A stretch of DNA of 52,139 nt from Psammoneis japonica (taxonomy: Eukaryota), in the NCBI GenBank assembly GCA_008632985.1, contig QPGO01000062.1, forward strand, positions 372,001-424,139, read 5' to 3'. Shown one piece after another: positions 1-24,657 of this stretch; position 1 is the first letter of the stretch; every line of letters begins with the position of its first letter. A program made the position numbers and the translations under genes. The notes under the pieces are model-generated. The model did no database searches and was not told the DNA's origin. It worked only from the letters and a program-made list of their open reading frames with translations.

Positions 1-149
1 AGGGCACAATGTGCAGCTAAAGTGATTTGAGTTGCAAGCTCACACAGTGACCTGGGGGCCCACAGTGTCTCTCAACAAAAAAAGGAGGCAGGCACAGCCT
101 TGCTCCTTTTCACATTTTTTTTCAAGAAACCAAGTTTGCTTGAAAGAGT

Positions 150-800
150 TGTGGCATGTGGCTGTGCTGCTGGGGGTGTTGAGGTTGTTTTGTGAAGGCA
201 TTGTCACACCAGGGCTGCTCAAGGCAGCAGCATTTGAGCTTGGAGATGACCTGTCAGCAAAACACTTGGGGGGGGNNNGGGGGGGGGGGGGTGGAAGAAA
301 ACTTCCAGCTGACTCTGCCACCACACACACAGCACAGGCTTGCAAAAGCATCAACAACAAGGAGCACCATGATGATGAGCTCATGCCATCAGCGCAAAAG
401 AGCCTCCTGGAGGGCTGCTGCATTTTTGTTTTGGGCACTTTTCTTGAGTGGCTGTTTGGGTGTCATCATGCTGGCTGCTGTTGGCTCATGCACATCTTGT
501 TTCAGCAGCAGAAAAGAATCATCTGCCATGACACCCTTCAACATGACACAAGCTCACGGGCATGCTGGAATGCTGGGACCTGTCTTTTTTGATGATCTGT
601 GACATCTGGCAGTTCTCTGGATTGTGAAGCATCCATGATGCTTGCTGCCACACATGATTTGTGCCACACTGCAAAAAACAAAAACAGAAGACCTGTGCAA
701 AACAAATTTCCCCATCAACTTTGGAGCCTCCCTGGCAATGTTTGCATGCTGGCCAAGGGAGAAATTCAAGGAAGCATGCTGCACTCTTGAAATGAAGCAC
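150..800. repeat. Old degenerate dispersed repeat (copy 1; copy 2 at about 27030-27720)
   Basis: Collinear shared blocks, e.g. gtggctgtgctg..ggggtgttgaggttgttttgtg, ccagctga.tctgcca, ccatgacacccttcaac, atttgtgccaca.tgcaaaaaa, tggccaagg(g)gagaaatt. Almost no TpA or CpG. Family not recognisable. Confidence 0.7.
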
Positions 801-801
801 A

Positions 802-1077
802 TGACAGAAATTGAAGGCAAATGGCAAGAATTCAAACAACAACTCCTTGCTGCTGTCTAAATGGCAGATGAGTCTCCGCTCAGAGACCGTTGCAGGAGCC
901 GAAAGACGTGCAAGTCGGCACAATCGGGCTGCTGTTGTCATTCTTGTGAGCCGTGTGGCTCGAAAGCAAACTGCATCGCATGCGAACGCGCAGAACTAAA
1001 GCACACAAAACTGTGCGCGGCAAACTAAACAGCACGCGACATTTCGCGCGCACCTGAATCCTGTTCAAATCCTGTCA
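802..1077 (-). repeat. 276-bp LTR of Copia family A
   Basis: Inverted copy of 9097-9372, with TGACAG...CTGTCA termini and an adjacent polypurine tract (GGGGAG on the minus strand). Confidence 0.92.
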
Positions 1078-3212
1078 CTCCCCAGTTTGCTTGAGGAGTC
1101 ACAGAAACAGATTCGACTTCGGATGGAATGAAGTTCCAGAACATGAGGGGGCGGAGAAGGTCCCAGACTTGGGAGCAACCCCAATGCTTGCTGAGAATGT
1201 CAGCAGGGTTGCGGGAGCCTTCGATGAAGTGGAGCTCAAGGCAACCAGAGGCAATTGCCTCGCGCACATGGTGGAATGACAGTGTGGTGTGTCGCTTGTG
1301 TGACTTGGAGTGCGGGATGGTGGCACTGTCTACAACCGACTTGTTGTCACCGAACATGTGACTGATGTCACAGATCGGGACGCCGAGGCAGCGCAGGGTG
1401 ATGCGCAGGTCAACAATCTGCTCGACACAAGTCCTTGCGGCAACAAATTCAGAGCCGCAGGTTGCAGTCTCCATGGTGGCTTGCTTCTTAGAGAACCAAT
1501 CAGCCAGGAATTTGTTGAGGAAGTGGAGCATTCCCATGACAGAGCGTCCGGTGAGCATGCAATGGCACAAGTTTGCATCGACGCAGTGGGTGGCAGCAAC
1601 GAACTTGCCAAGGGGTGGTGGAGCGTCCTTCGGGATCATCTCTTCTGCCTTGCCGCACACGGAATGCATCCATTCACAGGCCGGAGCAGGGAGATCCGAA
1701 CAGTCGGGCTCTTCCGTGCGAACGCAGAGAGCGCCGTGTCGCATCTTGGAGAGGTGCCAACAGATGCGTTTGGCACGATCCAAGTGGCCTTGACGGGGCG
1801 CAGCTCGCCGTTCCTGCGCATCCAAATGTCGGGTTCGGCGCGGCAGGGGAAGAAACCTTCAGCTCGCAGGCAGTCGGTGAAGCGCTCATGCCAGCGGAGG
1901 CCGGAGCTGTGCAGTCCATGCAGGGCCTTGTGGATGACAAGAATGTGGCCTTCGAGTTTGCCAAATTCGGGTCCAGCCATGATGCACAGCTTCTCCTTGG
2001 TGGTGGCTTCAAGGTGGGCATTGCCAATGTCGGTGGCCCATGTCTCCAACTCGTTGAGTTCGGCCAGGAAAATCATCAGCCGAAGGCCACGGAGGGAGAC
2101 TGCTCCGGAGCAGACACTGTCGATGGGCACATCCGTGAGGTGCCCATCGGCTGCGAGTCGTGCCTTGTGGCGGCCGTCGTGTTTCACGTCACACACCAGG
2201 TGCACTCGGATCTTCTTGTGTCCCGCAGGAGGAGTGGAAGACTCGGAGGGCCCGCAGTCATGAAAGACTTCGTATTCATCAAGTTGGTCCATCTCGAGAT
2301 TAGTTGCGTCTCCCCATTTGCTGTTGCCGTTGCATTCGTCTAGTGACATGGCGTGTTTGCAGTTCCGGGGAACTTCGCATCCGCACTTGTGGCGAGGTGC
2401 AGTGCGGAAGGAGCAAAGCTTGGCTTGGTTGGCCATGCGGAGCAGCTTCTTCTGGCACCTCGCGATGGTGCGGAACCGCTTCCAGCCATCAGTGTCGAGA
2501 AGTCCGTTCTCTCGTGCACAGATGGCGCAGGTGACAGGGTCGTCCTTGGCGATGATGGCAAGAGGCTTGGACGTGATCTCCCCACTTTCCCATTCGAGCA
2601 TGCTGTTGTAGCTTGAGCCTTTCCAGGTTGGGTCATGAGGCTTCAGAGGTCCTTCGTGTGGCACAATGCATTGAAATTTCCAAACAGTGGTGTCCTCGTC
2701 TTCTTGCTCAATGTGATTCATGATGTCATTGCAGGCCAGGACTTCCTCGCATTCGTCGTTGTTGACAGAGCAGACGAACTTGGTGAGCTCAGGGTTGCCG
2801 TTCACTTTCCATTCGTGGTCTTTGACGGCCTTGACGATGCAAGCTCTGTGGCGTTGTCCATCCTCTTGTGGCTGCATGAGGAAGGTGCGTCCGATGATGT
2901 CTTGTGGATCGAAAACTGGCATCTTGGGTGTCCTGATCTCCCCATCGGGTGAATCGACGGGGTTGTCGTCATGGCGAGATTTGATGATGGGTTCAGGTGG
3001 CTCCCCATCAGGAGGATCAAGACGCAGGTTTCGAACGGCAGGATCGGTGGCAGCGGATCGTACGTTGGACCGGCAGAGGATCTTCTGAGTGTCGTCAGAG
3101 AGAATCTTGAAGGTCATCTGGTGGCCGACGTGCTCAGCAATGCCAACAAAGCGTCCACGCAACTCACGGGATTCGGATGGCCAATCGGAGTCATCGAGGT
3201 GGAAGCACACGG

Positions 3213-3607
3213 GACGCGTTCCAGACGCAGGTGGGAATCCGTGTGACATTGGGCCCGCAGAATTCTGCGTGCGAGCTCCGCAGTAAAATTGTGCGGCAAC
3301 AAAAATGTCAACAGTCGCCAACAGAAAATGAGGCAATTTTGCGAACACACAAACTCGCCCATGATTGAAGTGCATCATTTTTTACTTGGCCAGTTGCATT
3401 CTTCAGACATTGAAGAATGTAACTGTCCCATCATTGTTCCCACAAATTCGTCACATGAAACGTCTGGGGCTTCGCAAAACAGCGAGTCTGGACAATTTTT
3501 TTTAAATGTCACACGTGGAAATGTGCGTGCGAAACACACGACGGATGACAAAAATTTTTGTGTCACACGTCAGTGCTGCGAGCTCCCACCCAGGGCTGGA
3601 ACGTGTC
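3213..3607 (+). mobile_element. 395-bp MITE copy 1 (TpA-hypermutated), inserted in the Copia integrase region
   Basis: TIRs GACGCGTTCCAG...CTGGAACGTGTC. 4-bp TSD ACGG (3209-3212 / 3608-3611). The empty site is visible in the paralogous Copia at about 6541-6560. Confidence 0.95.
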
Positions 3608-3663
3608 ACGGGTTCCCACCAGTGAAAGCAAAGCAATGGGCTGATGTCCGGGGTGGAGCCAAT

Positions 3664-6600
3664 GTGATCCCTTTGCCCCGCAGTTATAAGAACATGTTGT
3701 CAGCTCCAATTGGTCTGCACATTGTCAAAGCACACGAAGGTCTTGACATTGCCAATGACTCCTCGTTGTTCACGCATGACGAGTTCCTTGCCTGCCGCCT
3801 CAGCCCCGACTGCATGTCTTCTGTGTCCGTCAGCAGCTCGCCCCTCGCACCTCCGCATGTCACCAACGCGACCAAGGCACGCGACCCGGCACGAGACTTC
3901 AAACAAGGCATCAAGTGTGACCCCACCGCTTTCACGGCTCTCAAATCCGACAAGCAGTGGCACACTTGGCACACCTCACTTGTGGCACAAGCCCATGTCC
4001 AAGACGTCAAGTGTGTTCTAGACTCATCGTACAAACCGACCAGCCCCGAAGACAAACTGCTCTTTGCTGAACAGCAAAAGCACATGTTCGCCGTCTTCGA
4101 ACGCATCCTTCTCACCAACAAGGGCAAGGCTCTCATTCGCGAAAATGTGGGGTCTTCTGACGCCCAGACCGTCTGCCGCGCCTTGTCTGAGCATGCGCTC
4201 GCCTCCACCCATGCATCTGTCAAGTCCTCCACCTTGCTCACGTGCCTCACCACCGCATGTCTTGGTGATGGCACTTGGAAAGGCCCGACCCACGGGTTCA
4301 TCCTTCATTGGCAAGATCAGTTGCGCAAGTGCGAGGCACTCATCCCGGCCAGTGACCACTTCTCTGAAAGACAGAAGCGCGTCATGCTCGAGAATGCTGC
4401 ACATCCTGTCAAGGAACTCCGTGCTGTCAAGAACCAAGCTGATCAGCATCACACGCAGAGTGGCAAGAGCCTCACATGCGATCAACATTGTGGCTTGCTC
4501 CTCTCCACGGCGGCTCAATGCGACAGTGCGTTTCAACCCAAGACGACACCTCGAGCTCCCTGATGCGCCACACACGCACACGACGTCCACTCCGAGGAAC
4601 CGTCCGATGATGTGTTCTGCGACATTGACAGTGACATTGACGTCCTTCAGGCCAATGCTGCCTGCACCCATGGTCCCAGCCTCACCGGTGACCAATGGAA
4701 ATGTCTGCCTCCCGACCACCAACGGATTTGGGATTCGTTGCCCCATTCCTCCAAGGCAATCATCCTTGAGCATTCTCGTCTGCCTCCCCGCAACCCGCGA
4801 GCCAGCAACTGCCATGAGTCCATTGCGGCCAACCTTCACGACCAACGCCTTGGGAGTGACGGTGATGTCAACTTGTCCAACACGACTCCTGCTGACTCTG
4901 GTGACCCCGCTCCAAATGTGGATGCCACTTTGGACAATCCCATCCTGGCGCACCTCACCAAGTGCAAGCCACTGCCACCCGGTGATCTGCAACGCCTGTT
5001 GTCTCCTGACCAAGCCCCCAATGCCAGTTGACCGGGGCCATCCGCCGCTCCCTCTGCCTCGCCAGCTCCCACCGATGACACAGAACTTAACGGCCGCACT
5101 TGCCGCCGCGTCAATGACCACAATGTCATTTGCTCTGCCTCTGCTCATCGCTCCACACGCACTGGTGCTCCAGTCGATCGTGGGGCCAATGGCGGCATTG
5201 CTGGCGACGACGTTCGCGTCATTGCATGCACCTCTCGCCAAGTCGACGTTCAGGGCATTGACGACCATCAATTGGTGGACATCCCTGTTGTCACCGCTGG
5301 TGCCGTCATTGAGACACAGTGTGGTCCCGTCATCGCCATCCTCCATCAGCACGCATGCACGGGAAAGGGCAAGACCATTCATTCCTGCGGCCAGCTCGAA
5401 TGGTGCAAACAGGATGTCAACGATCGCTCTGTCAAGGTGCCCAACGGCTTGCAATGCATTGCCACCCCTGATGGCCATGTCATCCCAATTGACGTCAAGG
5501 GCGGCCTGCCTTGTGTTGTCATGCGACCTTGCGCTGACGCCAAATGGGACACCCTGCCCCATGTCATCCTTGCCGGTGATGACACATGGGATCCTTCCAC
5601 CTCGATCACTCTGTCACTGACGACGAACAGTGGCACGACGCGATCTCTGACCTGCAGGACGATCCCACTGCCAACCCATTTGACGAATGCGGCAACTGCC
5701 ATCATCGTGTCATTGTCAACAAGACCATCATGTCCGCTTCCTTGTCTGCCGATCACGCGTCCGCCCTCGATGATCACCTCATTCCGAACGACGACGTGTT
5801 CCACGAGTGTCATCTGCACACGATTGACCCCAAGGACGATGACGTTCCGCCCCCGGAGTGCACTGTGCAGCCCAAGGACCCCCCCTTCGAGTCTCTTTGG
5901 CCTTGCTTTGGCTTCCTGCCTGCCGAAGCGGTCAATCGCACTTTTGACTGCACCACGCAGCACGCCCGCATGCCCGCCGGTGCACACCTCAGGAAGGCCT
6001 GCAAATCGCCCAACCTCGCCCTCAATGTGCACCGCCGCAACGAGCCTGTCGCCACTGACACCGTTTGTGCCGACACCCCGGCCATCGACTCTGGTTGCAC
6101 CAGCGCCCAACTGTTTGTTGGCACCGAGTCTGCCGTCACTGACGTCCACGGCACCAAAACGGACAAAGAGTTTGTCAACACACTCGAGGATCAGATCCAT
6201 GAGCGTGGTGCCCCATCCAAACTCATTGGCGACCGTGCTCAAGTTGAGATCAGCAACAAGGTGCTCGGGATCCTACGAGCCCTCTTCATCTCCAGCTGGC
6301 AAAGTGAGCCTCACCAGCAACACCAAAACTTTGCCGAGCGTCAATGCCAGACCGTGAAGCGCATGGCGAACACTGTCATGGATCGTTTCGGTTCACCTGC
6401 CCACACATGGCTGCTGGCACTCATGTGCGTGTGCTTCATGCTCAACCACGCAGCATCCCCACGTCTCCACTGGTGCATGCCCCTCAAGACTCTCACTGGC
6501 TCCACCCCAGACATCAGCCCATTGCTTTGCTTTCACTGGTGGGAACCCGTGTGCTTCCACCTCGATGACTCCGATTGGCCGTCCGAGTCCCGTGAGTTGC

Positions 6601-9372
6601 GTGGACGCTTTGTTGGCATTGCTGAGCACGTCGGCCACCAGATGACCTTCAAGATTCTCTCTGACAACACTCAGAAGATCCTCTGCCGGTCCAACGTATG
6701 ATCCGCTGCCACCGATGCTGCCGTTCGAAACCTGTGTCTTGATCCTCCTGATGGGGAGCCACCTGAACCCATCATCAAATCTCGCCATGACGACAACCCC
6801 GTCGATTCACCTGATGGGGAGATCAGGACACCCAAGATGCCAGTTTTCGATCCGCAAGACATCATCGGACGCACCTTCCTCATGCAGCCACAAGAGGATG
6901 GACAACGCCACAGAGCTCGCATCGTCAAGGCCGTCGAAGACCACGAATGGGAAGTGAACGGCAATCCCGAGCTCACTAAGTTCGTCTGCTCTGTCAACAA
7001 CGACGAATGCGAGGAAGTCCTTGCCTGCAACGACATCATGAATCACATTGAGCAAGAAGACGAAGACACCACTGTTTGGAAATTTCGACGCATTGTGTCA
7101 CACGAAGGACCTCTGAAGCCTCATGACCCAACCTGGAAAGGCTCAAGCTACAACAGCATGCTTGAATGGGAAAGTGGGGAGATCACGTCCGAGCCTCTTG
7201 CCATCATCGCCAAGGACGACCCCGTCACCTGCGCCATCTATGCACGAGAGAACGGACTTCTCGACACTGATGGCTGGAAGCGGTTCCGCACCATTGCGAG
7301 GCGCCAGAAGAAGCCATTCCGCGTGGCCAACCAAGCCAAGCTTTGCTCCTTCCGCACTGCACCTCGCCACAAGTGCGGACACGAAGTTCCCCGGAACTGC
7401 AAACACGCCATGTCACTAGACGAGTGCAACGGCAACCGCAAATGGGGAGACGCAACTAATCTCGAGATGGACCAACTCGAGGAATACGAAGTCTTCCATG
7501 ACTGCGGGCCCTTCGAGTCTTCCACTCCTCCTGCGGGACACAAGAAGATCCGAGTGCACCCAGTGTGCGACGTGAAACACGACGGTTGCCACAAGGCACG
7601 ACTCGTAGCCGATGGGCACCTCACGGACGCACCTGTCGATGGTGTCTACTCCGGAGCAGTCTCCCTCCGTGGCCTTCGGCTGATGATTTTCCTGGCCGAA
7701 CTCAACGAGTTGGAGACATGGGCCACCAACATTGGCAATGCCTGCCTTGAAGCCACCACCAAGGAGAAGCTCTACATTGCAGCCGGACCCGAATTTGGCA
7801 AACTCGAAGGCCACATCCTTGTCATCCACAAGGCCCTGTGTGGACTGCACAGCTCCGGTCTCCGCTGGCACGAGCGCTTCGCCGACTGCCTGCGAGCTGA
7901 AGGCTTCTTCCCCTGCCGCGCCAAACCTGACATTTGGATGCGCAGGAACGGCAGCCACTGTGAGTGCGTTGCCGTTTGTGTGGATGACCTCGCCATTGCT
8001 GTGAAGGACCCTCAATCTTTCGTCGATGCTCTCACGGAAAAGTGCAAGTTCAAGCTCAAGGGTGCGGGACCGATTGAGTTCCATCTGGGCTGCGACTTTT
8101 CCCGGGATCCCAATGGCACCTTGTGCCTGTCTCTGCGCAAGTACATGGAGCGCATGGTCGACAGCTGCACCCGACTGTTTGGGGAGAAACCTGCCACCAA
8201 TGCCCTGTCACCTCTGGAGAAGGGTGACCACCCCAAACTGGACACTTCCGAACTGCTGGGGCCCGATGGCATTCACAAGTTCCAGTCTCTTGTTGGTTCA
8301 CTCCAATGGGCAGTGTCCCTTGGTCGAATTGACATTGCCACGGCCGTCATGTCACTCTCTGGCTTCTGAGCTGCACCCCGTCAAGGCCACTTGGATCGTG
8401 CCAAACGCGTCTGTGGGCACCTCTCCAAGATGCGACACGGCGCTCTCCGCGTTCGCACGGAAGAGCCCAACTGTTCAGATCTCCCTGCTCCGGCCCATGA
8501 ATGGATGCATTCCATGTACGGCGAAGCAGAAGAGATGATCCCGAAGGATGCTCCACCGCCCCTTGGCAAGTTCGTCACCACCACCCACTGCGTTGATGCA
8601 AACTTGCACCATTGCATGCTCACCGGACGCTCTGTCATGGGAATGCTCCACTTCCTCAACAAATTCCCGGCTGATTGGTTCTCTAAGAAGCAAGCCACCA
8701 TGGAGACTGTGACCTGCGGGTCTGAATTTGTTGCCGCAAGGACTTGTGTCGAGCAGATTGTCGACCTGCGCATCACCCTGCGCTGCCTTGGCGTCCCGAT
8801 CCGCAACATCAGTTGCATGTTCGGTGACAACAAGTTGGTTGTAGACAGTGCCACCATCCCGCACTCCAAGTTACACAAGCGACACACCGCACTGTCGTTC
8901 CACCGTGTGCGTGAGGCAATTGCCTCTGGTTGCCTTGAGCTCCACTTCATCGAAGGCTCCCGCAACCCTGCTGACATTCTCAGCAAGCATTGGGGTTGCT
9001 CCCAAGTCTGGGACCTTTTCCGCCCCCTCATGTTCTGGAACTTCATTCCATCTGAAGTCGAATCTGTTTCTGTGGCTCCTCAAGCAAACTGGGGAGTGAC
9101 AGGATTTGAACAGGATTCAGGTGCGCGCGAAATGTCGCGCGCTGTTTAGTTTGCTGCGCACAGTTTTGTGTGCTTTAGTTCCGCGCGTTCGCGCGCGATG
9201 CAGTTTGCTTTCGAGCCACAAGGCTCACAAGAATGACAACAGCAGCCCGATTGTGCCGACTTGCACATCTTTCGGCTCCTGCAATGGTCTCTGAGCGGAG
9301 ACTCATCTGCCATTTAGACAGCAGTGAGGAGTCATTGTTTGAATTCTTGCCATTTGCCTTCAATTTCTGTCA
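3664..9372 (+). mobile_element. Ty1/copia LTR retrotransposon family A, lacking 5' LTR and gag start; gag-PR-IN-RT-RH pseudogene
   Basis: Domain order is gag (about 3690-5030), protease (VDRGANGG, about 5173), integrase (VATDTV, SEPHQQHQNFAE), RT ([Y>C]VDD at 7977-7988), RNase H (VDAN, GSEFVA, NPADILSK), PPT GGGGAG 9091-9096, LTR. In-frame TGA stops at 4561, 6699 and 8367, plus frameshifts. Confidence 0.95.
9097..9372 (+). repeat. 276-bp 3' LTR of Copia family A
   Basis: TGACAG...CTGTCA directly after the PPT. Matches 802-1077 inverted. Confidence 0.93.
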
Positions 9373-9499
9373 CAAGGAGGAGCTCTTGAAGTGCCTGAGA
9401 GGGAGTGCTGCACAGAGCTGCAAGGTCTGGACACTGACTTTGGCTTTCTTGTGCTGCCCCCCCCCCCCCCCCAAGGAGGGTGTTGCAAAAGGGCAGCAC

Positions 9500-9670
9500 A
9501 GCATTGTCCCTCCTTGCAAGGCTGACCAAGCAAAAGGGGAGGGCCTCAAGTCACCAAAGGATTTTGACCACAGAGTGGGCTGAGCCAGATGAAGGCATGA
9601 CAATCACTTCTGACAAGAAGGCAAATGTTTCTGCTGACATTTTGTGCAGTGCTGCAAGGTGTGTGCACGC
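9500..9670. repeat. Degenerate dispersed repeat (second copy at about 35595-35770)
   Basis: Shared string ttgcaag.ctgaccaagc.aaaggg..agggcctcaagt...caaaggattttgaccacagag..tgggctgag.cagatgaagg and cattttgtgcag..ctgcaaggtgtg. Confidence 0.75.
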
Positions 9671-10432
9671 CACTTCAGAGGCCTGCATCCATGAATTGTC
9701 TCATGGTCTGACCAGTGCACATTGCTGTAGACAGCATTTGTGAGTGCCCACACATGCATTCATTTGTGATGAATCATGGCCATTTGACAGCCCACAAATC
9801 TCACCGATTTGCCACAAATGGTCTTGATTGAAAACAAACAAATGTCCACACCAACCAACAAATGTCCAAGGACTTTTACAAACAGTCATCAATCCCAATG
9901 AGTGAGGTGCAACCCAATCAGTTTATGACCCTGAACCAGTTGCTTTGCCGGATTTCACTTTTCTTGTCGCTGCCAACCAGGTGATGACCAAATGCAGTGT
10001 TGTGATTTGTTTTCAATCTTTGCTGTCAAAGTCAATTGGTTGGCTGGTGTGTTCAAACAATGTTTGCCATGGTCCCACCCATTTGTTGCATGTCTCTGCT
10101 GCAATCAATTGTCAACAAGTGTGATCGCAGCTCATGGCTGCCGAGTTGCTCTCGACCAAACCACCGCCGACTCCAGTTTGTAGATTTTGGCACAGTTGAC
10201 CTGGTGGTCATCTTCATCATCCAAGCCATCTTGTGCTTCTTCTGCCACCCGTTGATCTTGCTTGGTTGCAACTGCTCTGCAGAGCTCTTCCCACCATCCG
10301 AGGCACCCGCTTGCAACATCTTGCTTGATCTCCATGACCATGTTGTCAAAGAACTTGTTGGCCTTTGGCGACCACCCTTGGCTCTTCCTTGGTGTCTTGT
10401 GCTTCTGCAATCCCATGCTTCTGTCTGTGTCT

Positions 10433-11749
10433 GATGTGTTTTCATCCTGGGTGAGAAACTTTTGGACACATCACGAGGTTTTCTACGTGTTTCTACGTGA
10501 GACGTACATTCAGCACCAAAAATCTTTGTAAAAATCGCGCTCCATGACAGCAAAAACACATTTTTCCATGTCTCGAACCACAAACCACAATTCGCGCAAA
10601 CCGAAAATGGCACCATGCCGTCGCCATGAACTCGTCCATTCTTGCACCAACGGATGTTGTGACTGAGAAGGCAAGAATGCCGACACAGGTCAACAAGACA
10701 ACACTCAATGCGACAATGTGGTTGAAAATTTGATCTTTGTTTTTTGTTGTGCCTTGTGGACAGCCTTTTGACTCATGACATTTTTGATGCCTCTTTCTCT
10801 CTTCCTCAGCTTGCGAAGTGGGATTCTCATCAACGCGCTGCTCCATCAACTTGACACCAGATGCGGACAACGAAGAATGTTTTTATGACACGTTGCTGTG
10901 ATTCTTACAATGCATCGTCCGCACTTTGAGTCGTTGTGGACGATGCTTTTGGGTCGCGCGACAACATCAGATTTCGCCGCCGACAAGAGAATCGTTGTGT
11001 GTCCAGTTTTGAGGGTGTGTGAGGACAAAGAATCTCAGATGCAAGTGTGACAGTTTCATTGTTGTAAAGTGGAACAACACCATCAGTGATGTCCAAGTGT
11101 TGCAGCCATTTTATTTTATTCTAAGATGGAACCAGTCATTTTGAGCGGTGAAATTTTGTCAACATTTCATCTTTAACTCTGCTTGGGCACATCAGATCAC
11201 ATGGTGACTGGACACACATTTAACTTTGATGCTGCCATTTCAATCCCATTGTTTCATTCACTCAAGTGTCCCACACAGGTCGACAAATCAGTTGATCTTT
11301 GAAATGGCCGATCGCGCAAAAAAATCACGTGCGAAGTCAGTTCCCCCGATTTTTCTCATGCAAACAATGGAGTTAGAACGCCGTTCTTTTTTGGTGTGAG
11401 CTCTTCACACAATGAACAATGCGCACATTCTTTCAAAGCAGTCAGATTCGGTGAAAGAAACAGCAGAACAGTCTCTCAAATGCACCAGAATGACAACAAC
11501 GAGCAGCCAGCTGTCAGTTTCACTCGAAAAAATGCCGCTTTCGAGACAGCGCTTTTCTTGCACGCGCCCTTCAACCAATGAGAACAATGGCTGGCTTTTC
11601 AAAATAAACATGTCTGTGGAAAGAAGAAACGAAAAATCGGGGGAAAGTCCAGTCAGATTTGCTCGCACAAAAAGCACGGCGACGGAAAAGGGACAGACGA
11701 AATGTCTCACCTCCGTGTGCGCGTTTCTCACCTGGGATGAAAACACATC
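10433..11749 (+). mobile_element. ~1.3-kb non-autonomous TIR DNA transposon, copy 1
   Basis: 27-bp TIR GATGTGTTTTCATCC[TG/CA]GGTGAGAAAC at both ends. Flanks GTCT/ATCT fit a 4-bp TSD with one TA->TG change. No recognisable transposase. Confidence 0.88.
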
Positions 11750-12240
11750 ATCTTTTGGCTTTGCCACCGTGAAATGCTTGAGTGTCCTGACTGGCTTTCT
11801 CTTGTTGCTGGATGCACCCACATTGTTTTGGATGTCAACGAGCACTTTTGCAGCCTTGGTCAGAGCCATGACTTGAGCTGCAGTCTTTGGCTCATCTCGG
11901 ATCTTCTTGACCATGGCATCCCGTTTTGCAATGGACTCTGCCCTTGTGTCCTTGAACTTGTGCTTCAGTTCTTGTGCTGACAAACCTTCCTCCTCCAGTG
12001 GCTCTTGTGGATCTTTCTGGAGCAGCACAAACATGCTCTGGCCCTGGTCTTCCTTCTCCTTGGCTGTCGCGAGGTCTGGCATGATGGTCTCACACAAGTC
12101 CTTGCTTTGCTCTTGGTCCATTGGGCCTCCATCATCAACCAACTCCACGTCGCAATCTGACATCAGATTCCCCTGTCCTTGTTTTGGCTCTTGCACTCGG
12201 CACACCACACATTGCTGTTGTTCTTGAGGAGCATGTGGGC

Positions 12241-12635
12241 GACGCGTTCCAGCCCTAGGTGGGAGCTCGTAGCACTGACGTGTGACAACAATAATTTTTA
12301 TCATCCGTCGTATGTTTCGTACGTAGATTTCTACGTGTGATATTTAAAAAAATTGTCCAGACTCGCTGTTTTGCGAAGCCCAAGACGTTTTATATAACAA
12401 ATTTATAGAAACTATAATGCGCCAGTTACATTCTTCAATGTCTGAAGAATGTAACTGGCTAAGTAAAAAATGATGTACTCCAATCATGTGCGAGTTTGTG
12501 CGTTCGCAAAATTGCCTCATTTTCTGTTGGCGATCATTGACATTTTAATTACCGTATAATTTTACTACGGAGCTCGCACGTAGAAGTCTACGGGCCCAAT
12601 GTCACACGGATTCCCACCTGCGTCTGGAACGCGTC
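12241..12635 (-). mobile_element. 395-bp MITE copy 2 (TpA largely intact, young)
   Basis: TIR GACGCGTTCCAG at both ends. TSD GGGC (12237-12240 / 12636-12639). Inverted relative to copies 1 and 3. Confidence 0.95.
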
Positions 12636-13361
12636 GGGCAAACACCTTGGCGCACGCTGTGCCCATCCTCTTTTTCTTGGAGGTGCACTCTTTCCAGTGT
12701 GTGTCTCCAACAATCGGGTGCAGCATGCAGTCACAGAACACTGTCTGCAAAGCTGGGTTTCCCGAGTGATCTTGGAATCTTTCCACCAATGGCAAGATGC
12801 AATTGTTGTCATTGCAGCATGCACAAAGAGCTTCATTTGCGGCAGGGAAAGCAAGTGAGATGACACTTTTGGCAATCACAACAGCCACTCCTGTTTCACT
12901 CTCCATCATCACTCACTGTTGAACTTGTCCCTGCTGCGCCTGGCGTGCATTTAACCTCTTGATTGCCAGCCACTCCTGTTGCATCTTTTTTTGTTTTGTC
13001 GCAAGCCACTGGCAGCGCAGGCATGTTTTTTGCTCTGGCTCGGGCAAATCCTTTGAGCATCCTGTCCATCATCTTGGGGCCGCAATTCTGTTCATGATCT
13101 CTGCAGAGCATGCCCGTTTCCTCCATTTCCTTGTCATTGAATGTGAGTGTGACACTTGGGAACAATGTTTCCTTTGCATGTTCTCTTGCCTTCACCACAT
13201 CTTCCATCACCTTGGCCTGATCCGCCATCCAATTGGTTGAGCTTGCATGCCACTGCACAATGACCATTGTCGTCCACTTCTGCAGCAGTGTTTGTTTCCT
13301 GTGGGTGCTGAATGAAGCACACTGAAGCAATGTGATGGATGTGGTTGAGTCATGCGGATGC

Positions 13362-14677
13362 GATGTGTTTTCATCCCAGGTGAGAAACGCGCGTGCGGAG
13401 GTGAGACGTTTCGTCTGTCCCTTTTCCGTCGACGTGCTTTTTGTGCGAGCAAATCTGACTGGACTTTCCCCCGATTTTTCGTTTCTTCTTTCCACAGACA
13501 TGTTCATTTTGAAAAGCCAGCCGTCACTCTCATTGGTTGAAGGGTGTGCACAAGAAAAGCGCTGTCTCGAAAGCGGCATTTTTTGGAGTGAAACTGACAG
13601 CCATCTGCTCGTTGTTGTCATTCTGGTGCATTTGAGAGACCATTCTGCTGTTTCTTTCACCAAATCTGACTGCTTTGAAAGAATGTGTGCATTGTTCATT
13701 GCACAAAGAGCTCACACCAAAAAAGAACGGCGTTCTAACTCTGTCATTTGCATGAGAAAAATCGGGGGAACTGACTTCGCACGTGATTTTTTTGCACGAT
13801 CGGCCACTTCAAAGATCGACTGATTTGTCGACCTGTGTGGGACACTTGAGTGAATAAAACAATGGGATTGAAATGGCAGTGTCAAAGTTCAATGTGTGTC
13901 CAGTTGTCATGTGATTTGACATGCCCAAGTGGAGTTAAAGATGAAATGTTGACAAAATTTCACCGCTCAAAATGACCAGTTCTATCTTAGAATAAAATGA
14001 AATGGCTGCAACACTGAGATGTGCCAATGGCATTGTTCTACTTTACAACAATGAAACTGTCACACTTGCATCTGAGATTCTTCATCCTCACACACCCTCA
14101 AAACCGAACACACAACGATTCTCTTGTCGGCGGCGAAATCTGATGTTGTCGCGCGACCCAAAAGCATCATCCACAACGACTCAAAGTGCGGACGACACAT
14201 CACAAGAATCACAGCAACGTGTCATAGAAACATTCTTCGTTGTCAGCATCCGGTGTCAAGTGGATGGAGCAGCGCGTTGATGAGAATCCCACTTCGCAAG
14301 CTGAGGAAGAGAGAAAGAGGCATCAAAAATGTCATGAGTCAAAAGGCCACCCACAAGGCACAACAAAAAACAAAGATCAAATTTTCAACCACATCATCGC
14401 ATTGAGCGTTGTCTTGTTGACCTGTCTCGGCATTCTTGCCTTCTCAGTCACAACATCCGTTGGTGCAAGAATGGACGAGTTCATGGCGACGGCATGGCGC
14501 CATTTTCGGTTTGCGCGAATTGTGGTTTGTGGTTCGAGACATGGAAAAACACATTTTTGCTGTCATGGAGCTCGTTTTTTACTGAGATTTTTGGTGCCAA
14601 ATGCACGTCTCATGTAGAAACACGTAGAAAACCTCGTGATGTGTCCAAAAGTTTCTCACCTGGGATGAAAACACATC
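13362..14677 (-). mobile_element. ~1.3-kb non-autonomous TIR DNA transposon, copy 2 (inverted)
   Basis: Reverse complement of 10433-11749 with the same TIRs. Flanks ATGC/ATGG match at 3 of 4 positions. Confidence 0.88.
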
Positions 14678-14699
14678 ATGGCGCGCATGTGATGGTTGT

Positions 14700-17600
14700 C
14701 TTTTTCCCATCCATGTGTGTTGTTTGCTTGCCTGGACGGAGTCTTTCTCCATCATGTTTCTGTTTGTCTGTTCATCTGCGTTCAAATTTAAACAGATCCT
14801 TTCTCCAATTCAAAAATTTTCATCTTTAATTTCTGAACATGTGCGTGCCATGATGTCCAATTGTCTCTTTGTGGCCAACTCTCTAACAGTTGTTGCCACC
14901 ATGCCAAGCAACTCCCATTCAAAAATCAACCGGGTCTGCACCCAATGATTTGGTTCTCAATCCGAAACCTGTGCACCAACAAATGGTTGTGAACAAGCAC
15001 CCAATTGTTTCATCCTGCTTCTGCCGCCTTCCTTGTCTCCAATCAGACTCTTAGCTTGGCATGCCCATTTGCCACTGTCGCTGCCAATGCCCGCAAAATG
15101 CAGCCCATCCCAGTGTGTCTGCCACAACTCAATTGAGCCAGCTGTCGCAAATCACCGTTTTCATTTTCCAAGAACAGCAAATTGCTTGTCAGTTGTCTGT
15201 TTCTGCATCTGAGAATGACAAAGCACCAAGTTGCAGCACAGACTTTAATGGAGATGATGACCCACCCAGTTTCTCACCTGCGGATGACCCGGAGCCCATG
15301 CCTCCCCCGATGAAGAAGTCAAGAAGGAGGAGCAGGAGGAGGGCTGTGATGACAAAGAGCTTGATGATGATTCCTCTCATTGCGAGATGTTCCCTGGCCA
15401 TCTTGCTGTGTCCGTCTCCTCTCCTCCGGATGAGACATCTGAAGAATCAACCAACAACTTGGATCCCTTGAATGGTGAGGCACACCTGATTCACCAACCT
15501 TTTCACTGGCCAAGGAAGCTTCACTTGAGCTGATCATGCTGTGCAACAATTCCAGTGCAACACGTCAATTTTACAGTCAGTTGCTCACCCTGTTGCAATG
15601 ATTTTGCAAGAAGCGGAAATTCAATTGTTTCCAGTGTTTTGGGCGGGAATTTTTGGTGAAGAAACTCTGCAAGAAGGTTTTCCTGCCCCAGCCCGACACT
15701 CGCATCATTGGTGGACGGGGAGTCACTCACTTCCACATGCGGGACATGTTGAGAGATTTGTTTGACGTGCACAATCTCAGCATGAACAAGTCCCTGCTGT
15801 GGGCATGTTTCCACAAGTTTGTTCCTGTCAATGATTGTGATCTCAGCAAGATCATGGGAGAGGCTTTGTTGCCACGCTTGACAGTGGCAAGGATGTCAGC
15901 GGCCATGGCAGGACAAAGGTTTGCAAGGAGACAAAAAAGCTGAGTGCAAGAAGGCAAAACCAAGGTTTTGTGGGAGGAAGTGAGTTTTTCAGATGAGGAT
16001 TTCGACGTAGAATCATGTTGAAATCCTGCCGGAAAGTCGTGACAAGTCAGCAAGCTCCGCTTCACATGACCAGAGTCATGCAAGAGTGGGCCTGCAAGAC
16101 CAAGTGGCAGACAGAGCAGTGTCAAATTTTGGTGAACAGAAAGAAAATGGAGGGATTTCTGATCCCTGCCCCAAGAGTTTGAAAATCGGGAGAGTTGTGG
16201 TCACAATTTTTTGGGCGGGAGGACATGGAATGCGTGGGTGGTGTGCCAGTTGCAGATTGGGAGAGAACACTTGTGGAATCTCCCAGACAAGGGGGTTGAC
16301 AATGAAGACATGCACAAAGTTGGATGAAAAACGTGTGTTTGCACTTCCGTGAAATTGCAAAAGGGAGGTCACATCTTGACCAAGTGCAGAGACATAAATT
16401 TGTTTCATGTCAGAACATGCAACAGAAGTGATTCATGTGCAGCCATTGCAATGGTCAGAATGTGTCATTCTTCATGAATGTCATTGAATGGACGTGAGAT
16501 CTGGTGGCCGCAATGGCGGACGAAGAAAGGAGAGAGAAAGAAACACGGCAAAAAAGCCAGTTTTGGAACAACTTGACAGAGCAAGGTGATGAACTTAAGC
16601 AGCATCAGGCTGTTTGGATGGCGTGCTTGCATTCTGACATTCAGATCAGAAGAGGCGAGGTTGATTGGAGTGCAACCAAGATCAGTGTGATCAAAAAGCA
16701 TGCTTGTGGCAGCGGAAGAATTTTCCTGGCTTGCCAAAGCCAAAGTTGTTAGACTGTTCAGACAGCACACTCAAGTTCTGATGTGCAGAACAGACAAACG
16801 AGGTGGATCGTGTGTGAATCCAGATCAGCTTAGAGCTGGCTTGCTGAGGGCATCCAGATCCAGAGTGATCAGAGAGGGCATTTGCGGCAGCAGGACATGT
16901 TCCAAGCTTGCCAAAAACAAAGACACCCTCAAGCTGCTCAGATGGCATGCTCACGTTCTGACACTCAGATCAGACAAAACGAGGAGGATTGCACTGCAAT
17001 CCGATCAAGTGGCTTGCGGAGGCTGTCTGGATCCAGCATGATCAAGAGGCGTTTGCGGCGATCGGGAACATTCCGATCTGCCAAAACAAAACACCGAACT
17101 GCATTGTTCGCACTCTGATGGAATGAGTCAGAAGTGGCAAGAGCAACGCAGGCATCATGCACAATCGACTTGGCTTGTGGAATCTCTCCGGATCCGAGTC
17201 GACGGCTGACTCATCGTGGCATTGCAGGCTGATCATTGATGACCAAGCCCATCCGCTGTTCGTTGGTGCCACATGTGCAGCTTGTGGGCGATTGTGCAAG
17301 GCATGCCATTCGGCAGAAGCAATGTTTTCAGTGTTGTCGGCCCACATCGGGTCGACGCAACCGACCCCATCATCACCGGCAGTCCGCCAAATGCAATGAG
17401 GGGAACTGGGGCCGGCGGCCTCTCGTCTCGTCCATCGTCTGTCTGTCTCCCACTGCGTGCTGCTGTCACGCGGTGACTCCACCAAGAGCACGACCGCCCA
17501 CAAGGTGTCCTCTCCTTGTGCTGGGCCTGCCGTCTTGGCTCTGACAAAAATCGCCCTTTTCAATTGATGATTTCTCAACCATCATCCGATGAATGACCGC

Positions 17601-18200
17601 CGGAGTTGCTGCAAACAATTGTGTTGGTGCACGAGAATTGAGGGCAAACGCTCTGGAATCTGGAGTTGGGAATTTTTTGGCCTGAAAAAATCGAACCCAA
17701 AAAGTTCGAACTTTTGTCACCAACTTCCTCTCCAGTGTTTTTGGACATTTTTGATGACTTTGAAATGGGGGAACACTTGAGGGTCGTGCATTGGAGTTTT
17801 TGACACCCGGACCCATTTCAGTGCACGCCTTCATGTGTCTGTAGAATGCACTGAAATGTCAAAGGTCCAAATCAAATCGTGTTTGGCGTCTCAAAAACGT
17901 TCCCCCATTTCGGTTCCTCACCAATCAAAGAAATGAGGCGCAACATTCATTGTTCAACAAATGAACATGTTTCAATGATCACACCCAAAACTTGCACCTC
18001 ATCTTCCGAACAAACCGTCAGTGCTTGCCCCCCATTCTCCCCCCCCCATGGAACAAGCAGACTCTCAGCTTTCCATCGATGCATCACATGTGGGGCTGTT
18101 GTTCGTACAAAATTTCAAGTCATCATTGACATTCAACACAACAGCTGGCAGCTAGAAGTGGCAACAGGAATCATTCGAAAATGTCGCATGAGTCACAATT
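14700..18200. other. TpA-depleted relic with broken plus-strand coding-like segments; probable decayed TE
   Basis: Near-absence of TpA. An acidic stretch and fragmented ORFs lie at about 15200-17120. No motif recognised. Confidence 0.35.
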
Positions 18201-18249
18201 GATGTTTTGCACAGGGAAAAACACAAAATTGTGTGGAAATGTGCACAAT

Positions 18250-18512
18250 GTCATACGAGAGAGTGATTAGAGCTAATAACTTTTCGGGAACTGAATTGAA
18301 ATGCTATCTGATCGACGGCATTGGCCTTCACTATGTGAATCAAAATGCCGTCGATCAGACAGCATTTCAATTGATTTCCCGAGAAGTTGACATTCATATA
18401 CGGACTGATGGACAGACTCATTATAATTATTTTTGGTACTGTCCTACACAATTTCTACGTGATGACTCTGAGGACCCGAATGATTCCTATTGTAGAGCTA
18501 GAGTAGAGTACG
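18250..18512 (+). other. Coding-like exon fragment ending at a GTAAGT donor
   Basis: Normal composition and a Tyr-containing open frame (YERVIRANN...CRARVEY), followed by gtaagt at about 18513. The 5' side fades into the TpA-depleted domain. Confidence 0.35.
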
Positions 18513-18589
18513 GTAAGTGCGTCGTTTGTTGTTTGCCATGGTGCGATTTTTTTAGCTTGGTGTTTGTACGTGCGTGCGAGTGACTCACA

Positions 18590-20344
18590 ATGAGCAACAT
18601 GCTGCGTCGATTTGTTGCAAACGCTGCCAAGCAGGCAAAATCTCGAGCATGGTTCAATTTTGGCACAGTCTCCGAAGAGGCGGTTATTGTTCGGTTGAGA
18701 CCACACCGGCGGAGCCAGATTTTTTGTCAAGTCTCGGCTAGTGCCATTGCTCTCTCCTTGTGCGTCTACGTCCTTGGTTCTTCTGATACATGTAAGACTC
18801 ACGGCAGTAAAATAAAGGAAGAGAAGGACGAGCAACTGCATCAGCTACTCATTGGTGCTGCAATATCCGGCGACGGCGAACGCGTCAACGAGCTTCTTCG
18901 GGTAGGCGCAGGACCAACAAATGAGTTGTTAAAGCTTGTGATTCTTTGTGATTATGTTGACGCCCCCCCCGTCGTAGATGCCCTTTTGAAAGATGACTTT
19001 ATTGATCCAAGTAAAGCACTTTTTTACGCTGTGAAAGCCGGAGATATTGAGGTGGTAAAGGTCCTTCTAAAGAATGGTGCCGATCCTAATACTCGAGGTG
19101 TAGAAAAAATATTTTGGGGTCGGACTCCCATGTTTATCGCGGCGGAAATGGGTAATGTAGAAATGGTCGATGTCCTCTTACAACATGGAGCCAATCCCAG
19201 CGAAGTCGACTGGAAAGGGAGGACACCTCTGCATGGAGCAATACGGCATGACCACTATTCAACAGTAAGCTTTCTATTGTCACAGCTTGAAGTGGATACA
19301 AGCGGTGCCTTACAACATGCGTTGAGCTGTGAAATGATCAATTTTCTGCTTGAAAATGGATGTGATGCGCAGGAGTATGGCAGCTCGGAAGATCTGGAAT
19401 GCAAGATAGGTGCTATTCAAGAGGCCAGAAAGAGGCAAGGAGCATCTTCATTTGTTTTACAATCTCAAGGCTGGCGCCCACTTCTTGATATTATGTATGA
19501 CCATCTCAACAATAAGATATCCAGTGCCCGTCGGCGAATGGAAGTTGTTCGTGATGATCCGGCGAACAAACCACTTCTTGAGATTATCAAAAAAGCGTCA
19601 GAGAAAATGGGTGAATTACGAAAGCTGGAAAACAACTTGTACTCAACCGAGTTGAGATTGTCTCAAACCGGCAGCATTGCAGAACAGCAAGCTTTGCTTG
19701 CAAGCAAAGATAAGCTCTTGAGACACGTTGTGGTAGTCTCGCAAGCTCTGGATATGATTAAGTGGGACGAGCAAAATCGACCGACGTGGATTCGGCCTCG
19801 GAAAAGAAGGATTGCAGAACCAGCCATATTTCTAAGTCACACTGGCCAGGATGAGCGTCCGGCCACGTTTGTTGAGTTTCTCCATGAAGCGCTCGTAAAG
19901 GATCACGGGTTAGAAGCATTCTTGGATACCAAAAGCCTCGAAACTGGAGTCACATGGCAGGAAGAGATTGAATATTGTGCGACTCATTGTCGAGTCTTTG
20001 TTTGCGTACTGTCGGATAAATACTTCTCTCGCTACTGGTCTATGCATGAGCTCGACCTTGCCATGCACTCTGGAGTAGAGATTATACCGATATGGCATGG
20101 GTGCAAACCACCCAAAGTCAACAACAACGTGCGGCAAAGCCTTGCTCGGGTTTTGGAAGAGCGCGAAGTTACAGACTCCGAAACGCTGGACCGTTGGTGT
20201 GAGAATCTTCGGAAGCTTGGGATGATTCAAGGTGTTTTCGACGAGTCAACGTCCAAGCATAGCCAAGTGCAATTCCGAGACAAAGCGGCAGCTGACATTG
20301 TCAAGAAGCTAAAGGAGGTTCGAGCTCGCAGTGACACCGAGTAG
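18590..20344 (+). CDS. Ankyrin-repeat / helical linker / C-terminal TIR-domain protein (584 aa)
   Basis: ANK motifs ALFYAVKAGDIEVVKVLLKNGADPN, GRTPMFIAAEMGNVEMVDVLLQHGANP, GRTPLHGA. TIR motifs IFLSHTGQD, AFLD..SL..G..W..EI, VFVCVLSDKYFSRYWSMHEL, IIPIW. Uninterrupted ORF. Confidence 0.9.
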   Translation: MSNMLRRFVANAAKQAKSRAWFNFGTVSEEAVIVRLRPHRRSQIFCQVSASAIALSLCVYVLGSSDTCKTHGSKIKEEKDEQLHQLLIGAAISGDGERVNELLRVGAGPTNELLKLVILCDYVDAPPVVDALLKDDFIDPSKALFYAVKAGDIEVVKVLLKNGADPNTRGVEKIFWGRTPMFIAAEMGNVEMVDVLLQHGANPSEVDWKGRTPLHGAIRHDHYSTVSFLLSQLEVDTSGALQHALSCEMINFLLENGCDAQEYGSSEDLECKIGAIQEARKRQGASSFVLQSQGWRPLLDIMYDHLNNKISSARRRMEVVRDDPANKPLLEIIKKASEKMGELRKLENNLYSTELRLSQTGSIAEQQALLASKDKLLRHVVVVSQALDMIKWDEQNRPTWIRPRKRRIAEPAIFLSHTGQDERPATFVEFLHEALVKDHGLEAFLDTKSLETGVTWQEEIEYCATHCRVFVCVLSDKYFSRYWSMHELDLAMHSGVEIIPIWHGCKPPKVNNNVRQSLARVLEEREVTDSETLDRWCENLRKLGMIQGVFDESTSKHSQVQFRDKAAADIVKKLKEVRARSDTE

Positions 20345-20509
20345 AGTAGAGTCTCTCCTTACTTGCCAGTAGAGGCTACTAACTATGAATATATGTAAGA
20401 CGCCCTGGTTCCTGTTGCTTCGCTTCAACCATCGTAACCATAATCGCCATTAGTCTCGGACGAGATTGCAGAGTTTTGTTGGACTTGCAGTCCTCGAGAC
20501 AATTCTTTC

Positions 20510-21004
20510 ATGTTGTTTCCCGGTAACTTGTTGCATGGAGTGCTGCCGTGTCCCGGCGATCCCGACAATAACAACGACGGCGATAAGGATGAAATCGATT
20601 GGGATCGGCTTTCTGCTCAGACAGGAAGAAAAGCCAAGACTCCTCCAGGTCACCGTTTAACATTTATGGTTGGATTTTGGACGAGACGAGTTCCGGAGAA
20701 AATGAAGGAACGCCGACTGTACGGTCCTTTGCCGCCAGCGACAAGTGACCACACGCGGGTTTCCGAGATTTCCAAGGGTTACAAAGAGACAGGCAACAGC
20801 GCAACACCGGTTGATCCACAAAAGGATTGCGTTCCGCTGCCTAAGATTTTTCCAGCGTGGGAGAGCACACCACATCCAGAAACTGATCGAGATGAAATCG
20901 ATGATCCTCTATTGCGACTCCCAAGTAATGCCCAACGTATCGATCATCGTTTCTTTGTCAAGGGACCACCCAAATGTTTTCACGACAGTCTCTTTGATCC
21001 ATAA
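20510..21004 (+). pseudogene. 3' fragment of a gene with 2OG-Fe(II) oxygenase-like C-terminal motifs
   Basis: FPGNLLHGVLP...HRLTFMVGFW resembles the distal His and Arg strands of the fold. No ATG start or N-terminal half is visible. Confidence 0.4.
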
Positions 21005-21270
21005 CAGGCTTTCAAGATAATATAAGGATAGAATGCTGCGTAAGGTACCATAGAGTGTTCGCTCAGGACCGGCAAAACCGGTGCTCGGGAAACCAACTCG
21101 GCATTTCCCAGCCGACACAAGGGCAGTAATGCTCGAGAGAAGACGAAGGCAGCGTAATTACTTGTGAGAGATGACGAATGGCTAGAAGAGAACATGCTTG
21201 TAGCATTACACCGGTGGCAAGTGGGAACACATCAGCGTGTAGCAAAGGAGCCGTCCGTTGTTGTTGCATC

Positions 21271-21312
21271 AACAAGAGCAAGTTGGGTGCCAATGCCATT
21301 CTCGGAGTTTCG
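21271..21312 (+). pseudogene. 14-codon enolase fragment
   Basis: Translates as NKSKLGANAILGVS, a highly conserved enolase motif. The flanks are not enolase-like. Confidence 0.65.
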
Positions 21313-21753: not shown

Positions 21754-21986
21754 GCTGCAGAAGGCAGCAGCAATGGACAAATGGAGCCACTTGTTGTGTG
21801 CAATGCAGCCCCTTCCTCCTTGCACTGTGGTTTCTGGCATGACCCTCTCCTGGGGCAAACTGGCAGCCCCTGGCTGCAGAAGGCAGTGGCAATGGACAAA
21901 TGGAGCCACTTGTTGTGTGCAATGCAGCCCCCTTTCTCCTTGCACCATGGTTTCTGGAATGACCGTCTCCTGGCAAACCAGCAGCT
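21754..21986. repeat. Two-unit tandem repeat with a period of about 119 bp
   Basis: gctgcagaaggcag..gcaatggacaaatggagccacttgttgtgtgcaatgcagcccc starts at 21754 and 21873. Several unit differences are TG versus CA swaps. Confidence 0.85.

Positions 21987-24652: not shown

Positions 24653-24657
<5 letters not shown>

Follow-up and report, generated by a model that had tools for sequence, protein, structure and literature searches.

In a 52,139-nt stretch of Psammoneis japonica DNA (contig QPGO01000062.1 of assembly GCA_008632985.1, positions 372,001 to 424,139, forward strand; "the window" hereafter means this whole analyzed stretch), one copy of a short DNA transposon has lost nearly all of the TpA dinucleotides that two sister copies retain. 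In all likelihood, transposon-rich DNA of this diatom was purged of TpA in place, by change to TpG or CpA; the depleted copy is an old insertion that was purged together with its host, and the two sisters are recent arrivals. The initial annotation had singled out the three copies as a before/after pair. The loss is not unique to that copy and is one case of a domain-wide purge. This kind of process has been described once before, in 2026, in another alga, Bigelowiella natans (10.64898/2026.01.13.699255).

From its sequence features, the element is a miniature inverted-repeat transposable element (MITE), a non-autonomous cut-and-paste DNA transposon. Copy 1 (3213-3607, forward strand) is flanked by the 4-bp target-site duplication ACGG at 3209-3212 and 3608-3611, copy 2 (12241-12635, reverse strand) by GCCC at 12636-12639 and 12237-12240, and copy 3 (33515-33909, forward strand) by TCAT at 33511-33514 and 33910-33913. 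All three are 395 nt long, putatively non-coding, and end in 24-nt terminal inverted repeats with 83-92% identity between the ends, the terminal 12 bases being the same in copies 2 and 3. The family is of high copy number (2005 aligned contig pieces, described below). A low-stringency blastn of the window found no MITE copy beyond these three. Copies 2 and 3 are 98% identical, and copy 1 is 89-90% identical to either. Copy 1 splits arm 1 of a Copia element, and its insertion point has an exact empty counterpart in the second Copia arm, where a single ACGG stands at 6547-6550 (reverse strand). Copy 1 was thus inserted in arm 1 after the arms had split.

Copy 1 holds 4 TpA against 30 in copy 2 and 29 in copy 3, having lost 25 of the 29 TpA of copy 3, and it has 41 CpA and 35 TpG. 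Its CpG count is 24, compared with 26 in each sister. A three-way column table of the copies was made, and the columns at which copies 2 and 3 agree were compared against copy 1. Both sisters read T or A against C or G in copy 1 at 27 columns, 22 of which are clean TpA in the sisters and CpA (10) or TpG (12) in copy 1. These 22 account for most of the 32 substitutions that set copy 1 apart from the state shared by the sisters. Only 3 transitions run in the opposite direction, 2 of them at sites that are CpG in copies 2 and 3 and CpA or TpG in copy 1, and there are 7 transversions. In a direct comparison with copy 3, 24 of 38 differences fall within the 56 of 394 columns that belong to TpA (hypergeometric p 8e-14); 28 transitions take the same direction and 3 the opposite one (binomial p 5e-6). 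The estimate made earlier by eye, about 23 of about 30 TA sites converted, was correct within one, and its division of the outcomes between TG and CA and its remark that CpG were mostly kept agree with these counts. The four surviving TpA stand in GTAAA, TTTACT, GTAAC and TTTAAA, the TAA/TTA contexts that had been pointed out. The choice of strand along copy 1 is random (11 runs vs 11.9 expected, z -0.4).

Dinucleotide maps in 1-kb and 250-nt bins revealed that the window as a whole is bimodal in TpA content. Purged blocks comprise 33,562 nt with 132 TpA (observed/expected TpA 0.065, CA 1.66, TG 1.62, CG 0.53), and gene blocks comprise 17,389 nt with 718 TpA (observed/expected TpA 0.585, CA 1.17, TG 1.12, CG 0.97). 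GC content is 0.51 in the former and 0.47 in the latter. The purged domains extend over 1-18253, with 1-9 TpA per kb except in MITE copy 2; over 21241-22799, between two gene blocks, with one TpA at 21332; over 24715-36006, MITE copy 3 excepted, with a CpG observed/expected of 0.05-0.15 in 25-28 kb; and over 38891-42927, which is also CpG-poor (0.06-0.36), with CA+TG about 1.75-2.0. Block edges are sharp, within less than 100 nt: 21333-22799 contains no TpA, and from 22800 on there is about one per 5 nt. The 2-kb flanks of copies 1, 2 and 3 contain 9, 3 and 8 TpA, respectively, vs 4, 30 and 29 within the copies themselves. Copies 2 and 3 are therefore TA-rich islands in purged DNA, and copy 1 matches its purged surroundings. 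The TA-richness of copies 2 and 3 within purged DNA, together with their 98% identity, marks them as young insertions. Duplication alone does not trigger the purge, since a duplicated beta-helix gene (22876-24990 and 36151-38080, about 2 kb, 75-94% identity) is TpA-normal in both copies. These duplicates differ by 152 transitions and 87 transversions, and their TpA loss is not one-sided (10 vs 22).

The direction of the change is recorded in the Copia hosts. Arm 1 (802-3667, reverse strand) has 10 TpA in 2467 nt and an RVT_2 match in which Tyr columns read His or Cys. Arm 2 (6491-9372, forward strand), inverted and 95% identical to arm 1, has 18 TpA in 2882 nt and contains a reverse transcriptase open reading frame (ORF) at 6837-8369 on the forward strand, which matches RVT_2 and has CVDD in place of YVDD at 7977-7988. 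The host of copy 3 is a second purged Copia-like element (29075-34850, reverse strand) with RVT_2, SH3_retrovirus and gag-pre-integrase matches, and its ORFs contain 0-0.3% Tyr. A representative library contained 18,975 relatives of the arm 2 reverse transcriptase at E <=0.001, and the 19 full-span homologues among the 150 listed were used for comparison. Of the 14 columns that are Tyr in at least 60% of these 19 homologues, 4 are Tyr in arm 2, and the others are Cys (TGY) in 7 cases, His (CAC) in 2 and Phe in 1. By comparison, arm 2 retains 175 of the 195 conserved columns that hold other residues (Fisher p 6e-7 vs the Tyr columns). Across ORFs of purged DNA, Tyr content is 0-1.2%, compared with 3.6-5.6% in the homologues. 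A working Copia must have carried those Tyr codons, and the direction of change is therefore TA to TG or CA.

The two arms also reveal that they changed independently. At two Tyr columns (Tyr in 18 of 19 and in 19 of 19 homologues), arm 2 reads TGC and TGT where arm 1 reads CAC and CAT. Such differing outcomes at the same codons mean that the arms were hit separately, after their divergence and as integrated DNA, in keeping with the claim of the initial annotation that the change had happened in DNA. The reverse transcriptase ORF contains 10 CA-versus-TG doublets between the arms, none of which clearly supports a CpG ancestor. At all 7 single differences of TA against CA or TG, it is the MITE-free arm 2 that reads TA. 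Arm 1 has lost roughly 39 of about 49 TpA since the arms split, an estimate which assumes that the visible doublets represent half of the double losses. Differences of CpG against TpG or CpA make up 56 of the 127 between the arms, and by a rough estimate the per-site purge of TpA in these arms was several times faster than CpG decay. The same footprint was found in public protein sets, in which 3 of 150 and 1 of 118 Copia reverse transcriptases are Tyr-free. These four proteins (P0083, P0115, P0197 and P0223, from public contigs) have Cys or His at conserved Tyr columns and HVDD in place of YVDD; P0083, from a metagenome contig, has Cys or His at 12 of 12 Tyr columns. The purge therefore exists outside the window.

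The purge is strongest at RTAY and weakest at YTAR (R, purine; Y, pyrimidine). TpA survival, taken as purged blocks relative to gene blocks for each flanking context, is 0 for ATAT, 0.027 for ATAC/GTAT, 0.29 for CTAA/TTAG and 0.33 for TTAA; purged DNA contains no ATAT, with roughly 117 expected. The mutations of copy 1 follow the same preference as the whole purged domain, with losses at 6 of 6 RTAY, 14 of 18 mixed and 2 of 4 YTAR sites. The A of the dinucleotide is mutated at 10 of 17 sites when the next base is C and at 3 of 16 when it is A. This preference accounts for the TAA/TTA survivors of copy 1. Together with the Tyr codons of the host and the TpA state of the flanks, the shared preference upholds the TpA to TpG/CpA polarity that had been proposed from the three copies.

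Independent sequence data were obtained by aligning the contigs of a public run (X1), which are unphased, to copy 3 at 80% likeness. The MITE is present in X1, and two sediment metagenome runs of other studies hold small parts of it. The 2005 pieces from X1 fall into 300 with at least 99% identity to copy 3, 567 with 95-99%, 714 with 90-95% and 424 with less than 90%, and X1 depth over the MITE exceeds 20-200 times the depth of its flanks, which are themselves repeated. Of the 40 variants listed out of 56, 27 fall on the T or A of a copy 3 TpA, all but one of them as T>C or A>G. The listed variants touch at least 19 of the 29 TpA of copy 3, with both CA and TG variants at no fewer than 8, and a single one lies at a C of its 51 CpA/TpG. 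TpA are thus the variable sites across the MITE family, and they change away from TA. A separate scan of metagenomes with a 22-nt conserved MITE word returned 2 loci, both unrelated beyond the word.

Our results show a context-specific A:T to G:C transition that strikes TpA on both strands, prefers RTAY, acts in place and outpaces CpG decay. In this transposon-rich DNA it has run near to completion within sharply bounded blocks and spared the neighboring genes. Copy 1 would be an old insertion in Copia, purged together with its host, and we infer that all of its changes arose after insertion. Copies 2 and 3 would have come more recently, from a source that was still rich in TA, and landed in DNA that had already been purged; such later arrivals would mark the time since the last purge. 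The process may represent active, element-targeted editing as a genome defense. Because duplication alone is no trigger, the targeting of selfish DNA could run through chromatin state or small RNA. Adenine deamination in DNA at TpA, by analogy with the proposal for B. natans, is the chemistry that we favor, at slightly less than even odds. Thymine oxidation to a mispairing base is perhaps an alternative, though an unlikely one; thymine modification as such is possible, and a bias of repair or polymerase would be a further alternative. A bolder version of the proposal is tentative, and we lean against it slightly: a dedicated DNA-editing defense of diatoms, a mirror image of fungal repeat-induced point mutation (RIP), that would target new transposons, probably by small RNA or heterochromatin, and deaminate or convert RTAY sites until TpA is gone. 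It would be the same pathway as in Bigelowiella and an old defense across SAR (stramenopiles, alveolates and rhizarians). Under such a mirror-image defense, Tyr codons and catalytic motifs would be killed without stop codons, and the MITE family, with thousands of copies at all stages of decay, would form a natural time series.

Several observations weigh against the in-place purge as read here. Some family variants stand at 40-70% and are one-sided at palindromic sites; at 33831, for example, A>G reaches 64%, with no T>C listed at 33830. Such one-sided, high-frequency variants look like subfamily inheritance and not like pure recurrence. Non-TpA variants of copy 1 at 33564, 33661 and 33825 are shared with 14-87% of the family, which places copy 1 in a different sublineage from copies 2 and 3. 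As the contigs are unphased, copy 1 may owe some of its changes to a source copy that had been purged before it transposed. The strand runs in copy 1 carry no trace of a processive enzyme. Recognizable transposon proteins occur in only two purged blocks, Pfam matches are lacking for 67 of the 68 other ORFs of purged DNA, and the label of transposon DNA for the purged blocks is partly inferred from dispersed repeats. The pattern as a whole rests on one 52-kb window and on these contigs.

In one alternative, copy 1 transposed from a source that already carried most of the TG and CA states, the purge having taken place in DNA at another locus. The initial annotation had named the sharing of the copy 1 pattern by many genomic copies as the mark of such a subfamily, and sharing was found in part: at least 15 TpA-site states of copy 1 occur in the family, each at 11-69% of X1 depth. 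Contigs of the two sediment metagenomes carry copy 1-like states as well, the non-TpA markers of copy 1 include one shared with the family majority (33564 A, 87% of depth), and its inverted ends have for the most part been preserved. However, a TpA can change to two states only, and both are seen at no fewer than 8 TpA across the family, so recurrence should itself lead to shared states. The loss in copy 1 (25 of 29) matches that of the host arm (roughly 39 of about 49), the empty site in arm 2 dates the insertion after the arm split, and the flanking preference of copy 1 is that of the surrounding domain. Inheritance from a purged source is thus improbable as the main cause. The reverse polarity, with copy 1 original and the ancestor of copies 2 and 3 altered by RIP-like C-to-T change at CpA or by deamination of non-CG methylcytosine, was initially favored. 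The raw comparison of copy 1 with its sisters is symmetric in direction, and columns 16 and 46, private to copy 2 or copy 3, resemble CpA to TpA when polarized by the other two copies. Diatom DNMT4 is related to fungal RID, its function not being established, according to passages of PMC9998398 that do not deal with TpA. This polarity was rejected on the Tyr codons and the domain map, with conserved Tyr codons of the host Copia reading Cys or His and copies 2 and 3 standing out as young, 98% identical TA-rich islands. A listed TpA variant is found at 1 of 51 CpA/TpG of copy 3, compared with 19 of 29 TpA that vary, TG and CA variants at one site are incompatible with C-to-T change alone, and at column 46 (33560) the family itself varies, at 59%, which makes polarization from three copies unreliable there. 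We regard it as very improbable.

Two further explanations are a sequencing artefact and selection. Modified bases can give motif-specific consensus errors, and a long-read basecaller might systematically have called CA or TG where heterochromatic TA bears such a base, an error then passed on to the assembly. Against this, one and the same codon is TGC in one of the near-identical Copia arms and CAC in the other, the TpA of copies 2 and 3 were spared within the same domains, and the same CA and TG variants occur in contigs of the public run and of the two metagenome runs. There is no listed variant in the purged 60-nt flanks of copy 3, and Tyr-free Copia reverse transcriptases occur in other public protein sets; such an artefact is hardly credible. 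Avoidance of UpA is common in viruses and mRNAs, and gene blocks are also below the TpA expectation (0.585), as selection against TpA/UpA in transposon transcripts, for example through nuclease avoidance, would have it. Against such selection, the changes destroy conserved residues, the Tyr of a catalytic motif included, and they arose independently in two dead Copia copies. A putatively non-coding MITE and unannotated DNA are affected on both strands, and ATAT is absent where roughly 117 are expected, which leaves selection with the slightest chance of all. CpG decay was rejected as the cause of the copy 1 pattern, with only 2 CpG of copies 2 and 3 reading CpA or TpG in copy 1 and CpG being kept. 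Ancestral CpG that became TpA by double hits were rejected as well; copy 3 retains 26 CpG, and the CA/TG doublets at Tyr codons indicate a TA ancestor.

The closest known system is that of B. natans (Mettrop et al., bioRxiv 2026; 10.64898/2026.01.13.699255), as described in the available text of the preprint. In mutation-accumulation lines of that alga, the mutation rate of two integrated viral regions is about 1000 times that of the remaining genome, in some lines only, and 230 of the 231 changes there are A>G or T>C, without exception on TpA. Its genome contains scattered 1-kb clusters that are TpA-poor and rich in CpA+TpG, and reverse-transcriptase and DDE domains are overrepresented among its TpA-depleted coding sequences. 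An ADAT2-like adenine deaminase that would work on DNA is put forward by the authors, as a proposal only. In both organisms, TpA becomes TpG or CpA on either strand, within local blocks of foreign or selfish DNA that are depleted in TpA and enriched in CpA+TpG, and the GC-ward bias runs counter to the usual mutation bias. The diatom purged blocks exceed the cut-offs used for B. natans clusters (TpA <=0.43, CpA+TpG >=1.52). The lineages differ, a pennate diatom being a stramenopile and B. natans a chlorarachniophyte (rhizarian), and diatoms do not appear in the available preprint text. The targets are Copia, MITE and unannotated repeats in the diatom, and giant-virus and virophage inserts in B. 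natans. The purge is more complete in the diatom (TpA observed/expected 0.065 vs 0.45 in a B. natans virus region), and it was deduced from sequence comparison, whereas the B. natans changes were observed in the accumulation lines. The RTAY over YTAR preference and the read-out of Tyr as Cys or His belong to the diatom case and are absent from the main text of the preprint.

Fungal RIP resembles the diatom case in that it hypermutates transposons in place, by transitions only, in a dinucleotide context and with sharp limits; coding capacity is inactivated, and the dinucleotide footprint separates old from young copies. The chemistry is the opposite. RIP is a C:G to T:A change, mostly CpA to TpA, that raises AT and makes stop codons, whereas in the diatom TpA is destroyed, GC rises and TAA/TAG are nearly gone. 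RIP is also triggered by duplication, and both beta-helix duplicates are TpA-normal. CpG methylation with deamination of 5-methylcytosine is active in the same blocks, feeds CpA and TpG too, and has brought CpG observed/expected as low as 0.05-0.15 in the oldest blocks. It removes CpG and not TpA, in contrast to copy 1, which keeps CpG (24 vs 26) yet loses TpA (4 vs 29). ADAR and APOBEC leave similarly deaminase-like, clustered, single-type transitions in selfish elements, and ADAR prefers a U ahead of its target A, a preference for which 10.64898/2026.01.13.699255 cites earlier work. Their footprints arise on RNA or cDNA before integration and on one strand; the diatom changes lie on both strands, in a cut-and-paste DNA element and in integrated Copia copies that were hit independently. 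In a literature search limited to one library, no paper turned up that describes transposons of diatoms losing TpA. A dinoflagellate origin of the DNA, with 5-hydroxymethyluracil at TpA, was considered and rejected: the window has 0 matches to the spliced-leader motif and its Tic110 is diatom-like. The 15 reports that a literature search for 5-hydroxymethyluracil and diatoms listed all concern dinoflagellates.

With this diatom, TpA-specific A:T-to-G:C hypermutation would be known from a second organism and, for the first time, from a stramenopile. In the diatom the process acts on transposons and comes near saturation, which would turn a single-species curiosity into a candidate for a widespread genome defense. 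The preference for RTAY over YTAR, the action on both strands, the edges of less than 100 nt, the sparing of duplicated genes and the speed above that of CpG decay could guide the search for the enzyme. For purged elements, dating by divergence under a single genome-wide rate, as was done in a diatom study, would badly overestimate transposon age. Tyr to Cys or His at conserved columns offers a simple protein-level screen for the process in genomes and metagenomes. Annotation is affected too, since purged DNA yields false two-strand ORFs, which enter protein databases as Tyr-free reverse transcriptases. TAA and TAG occur at 1.5 and 1.2 per kb in purged blocks, compared with 10.0 and 8.5 in gene blocks, and their near-absence leaves long overlapping ORFs on both strands of purged DNA (1-9400 and other blocks). 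An example is the pair at 4024-5562 (reverse strand, 512 aa) and 4064-5620 (forward strand, 518 aa), neither with a Pfam match. Such long ORFs are likely to be taken for genes by gene callers although they are false.

The TpA-normal gene blocks lie at 18254-21240, with an ankyrin-TIR ORF at 18590-20344; at 22800-24714, with a beta-helix ORF at 23128-24288; at about 36007-38890, the duplicate of the beta-helix block with the second beta-helix ORF; and at 42928-52139, with a repeat protein, Tic110 exons and a GT92-type glycosyltransferase. The Tic110 exon ORF (48092-49036, reverse strand) finds its best named matches among raphid pennate diatoms, with Nitzschia inconspicua at 60%, Phaeodactylum at 57%, Cylindrotheca at 55%, Pseudo-nitzschia at 54% and Seminavis at 53%, with a best match overall of 65%, and the glycosyltransferase ORF has matches of 38-44%, a Thalassiosira among them. 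Judged from these protein matches, the window is raphid pennate diatom DNA of none of the species matched by Tic110. The ORF at 18590-20344 (forward strand) is intron-less and encodes 584 aa in which ankyrin repeats are followed by a TIR domain at the C terminus, an architecture of immune type found here in a diatom. The 845-aa ORF at 42620-45157 (forward strand) consists of at least 8 tandem repeats of 144-147 nt (48-49 aa) with 60-80% identity. It falls within TpA-normal DNA and weakly matches thrombospondin type 3. Just upstream of the duplicated beta-helix genes, the stretches 22800-22991 and 36112-36233 are AT-rich, with a TA about every 5 nt, and abut TpA-free DNA; they are probably promoters. 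Rfam gave no match in the window.

Some structural details of the mobile elements were also noted. The Copia arms flank a unique, GC-rich 2.8-kb center (3668-6490) with no recognizable domains, and arm 1 is without 415 nt that are present in arm 2 (7953-8367), a deletion in the reverse-transcriptase region. MITE copy 2 sits near the middle of a 4.2-kb structure (10432-14678) with 1.3-kb inverted arms. These arms (10432-11749 and 13362-14678) are 93-94% identical and, like the Copia arms, differ mostly by CA-versus-TG doublets. The structure has no Pfam match and may be a foldback-type element. Splice-site-like motifs lie within the inverted ends of copy 1 (3230-3236 and 3585-3592) and at the equivalent places of copies 2 and 3, with AG|GTGGGA by the left end and a pyrimidine-rich run followed by AG|G by the right end. 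The hosts of MITE copies with these splice-like ends are dead Copia copies. Some X1 contigs join the MITE body at 33544 with a different but related left end that has the same GTTCCAG...CAGGTGGGA core, which suggests a second MITE family with a common transposase-binding end.

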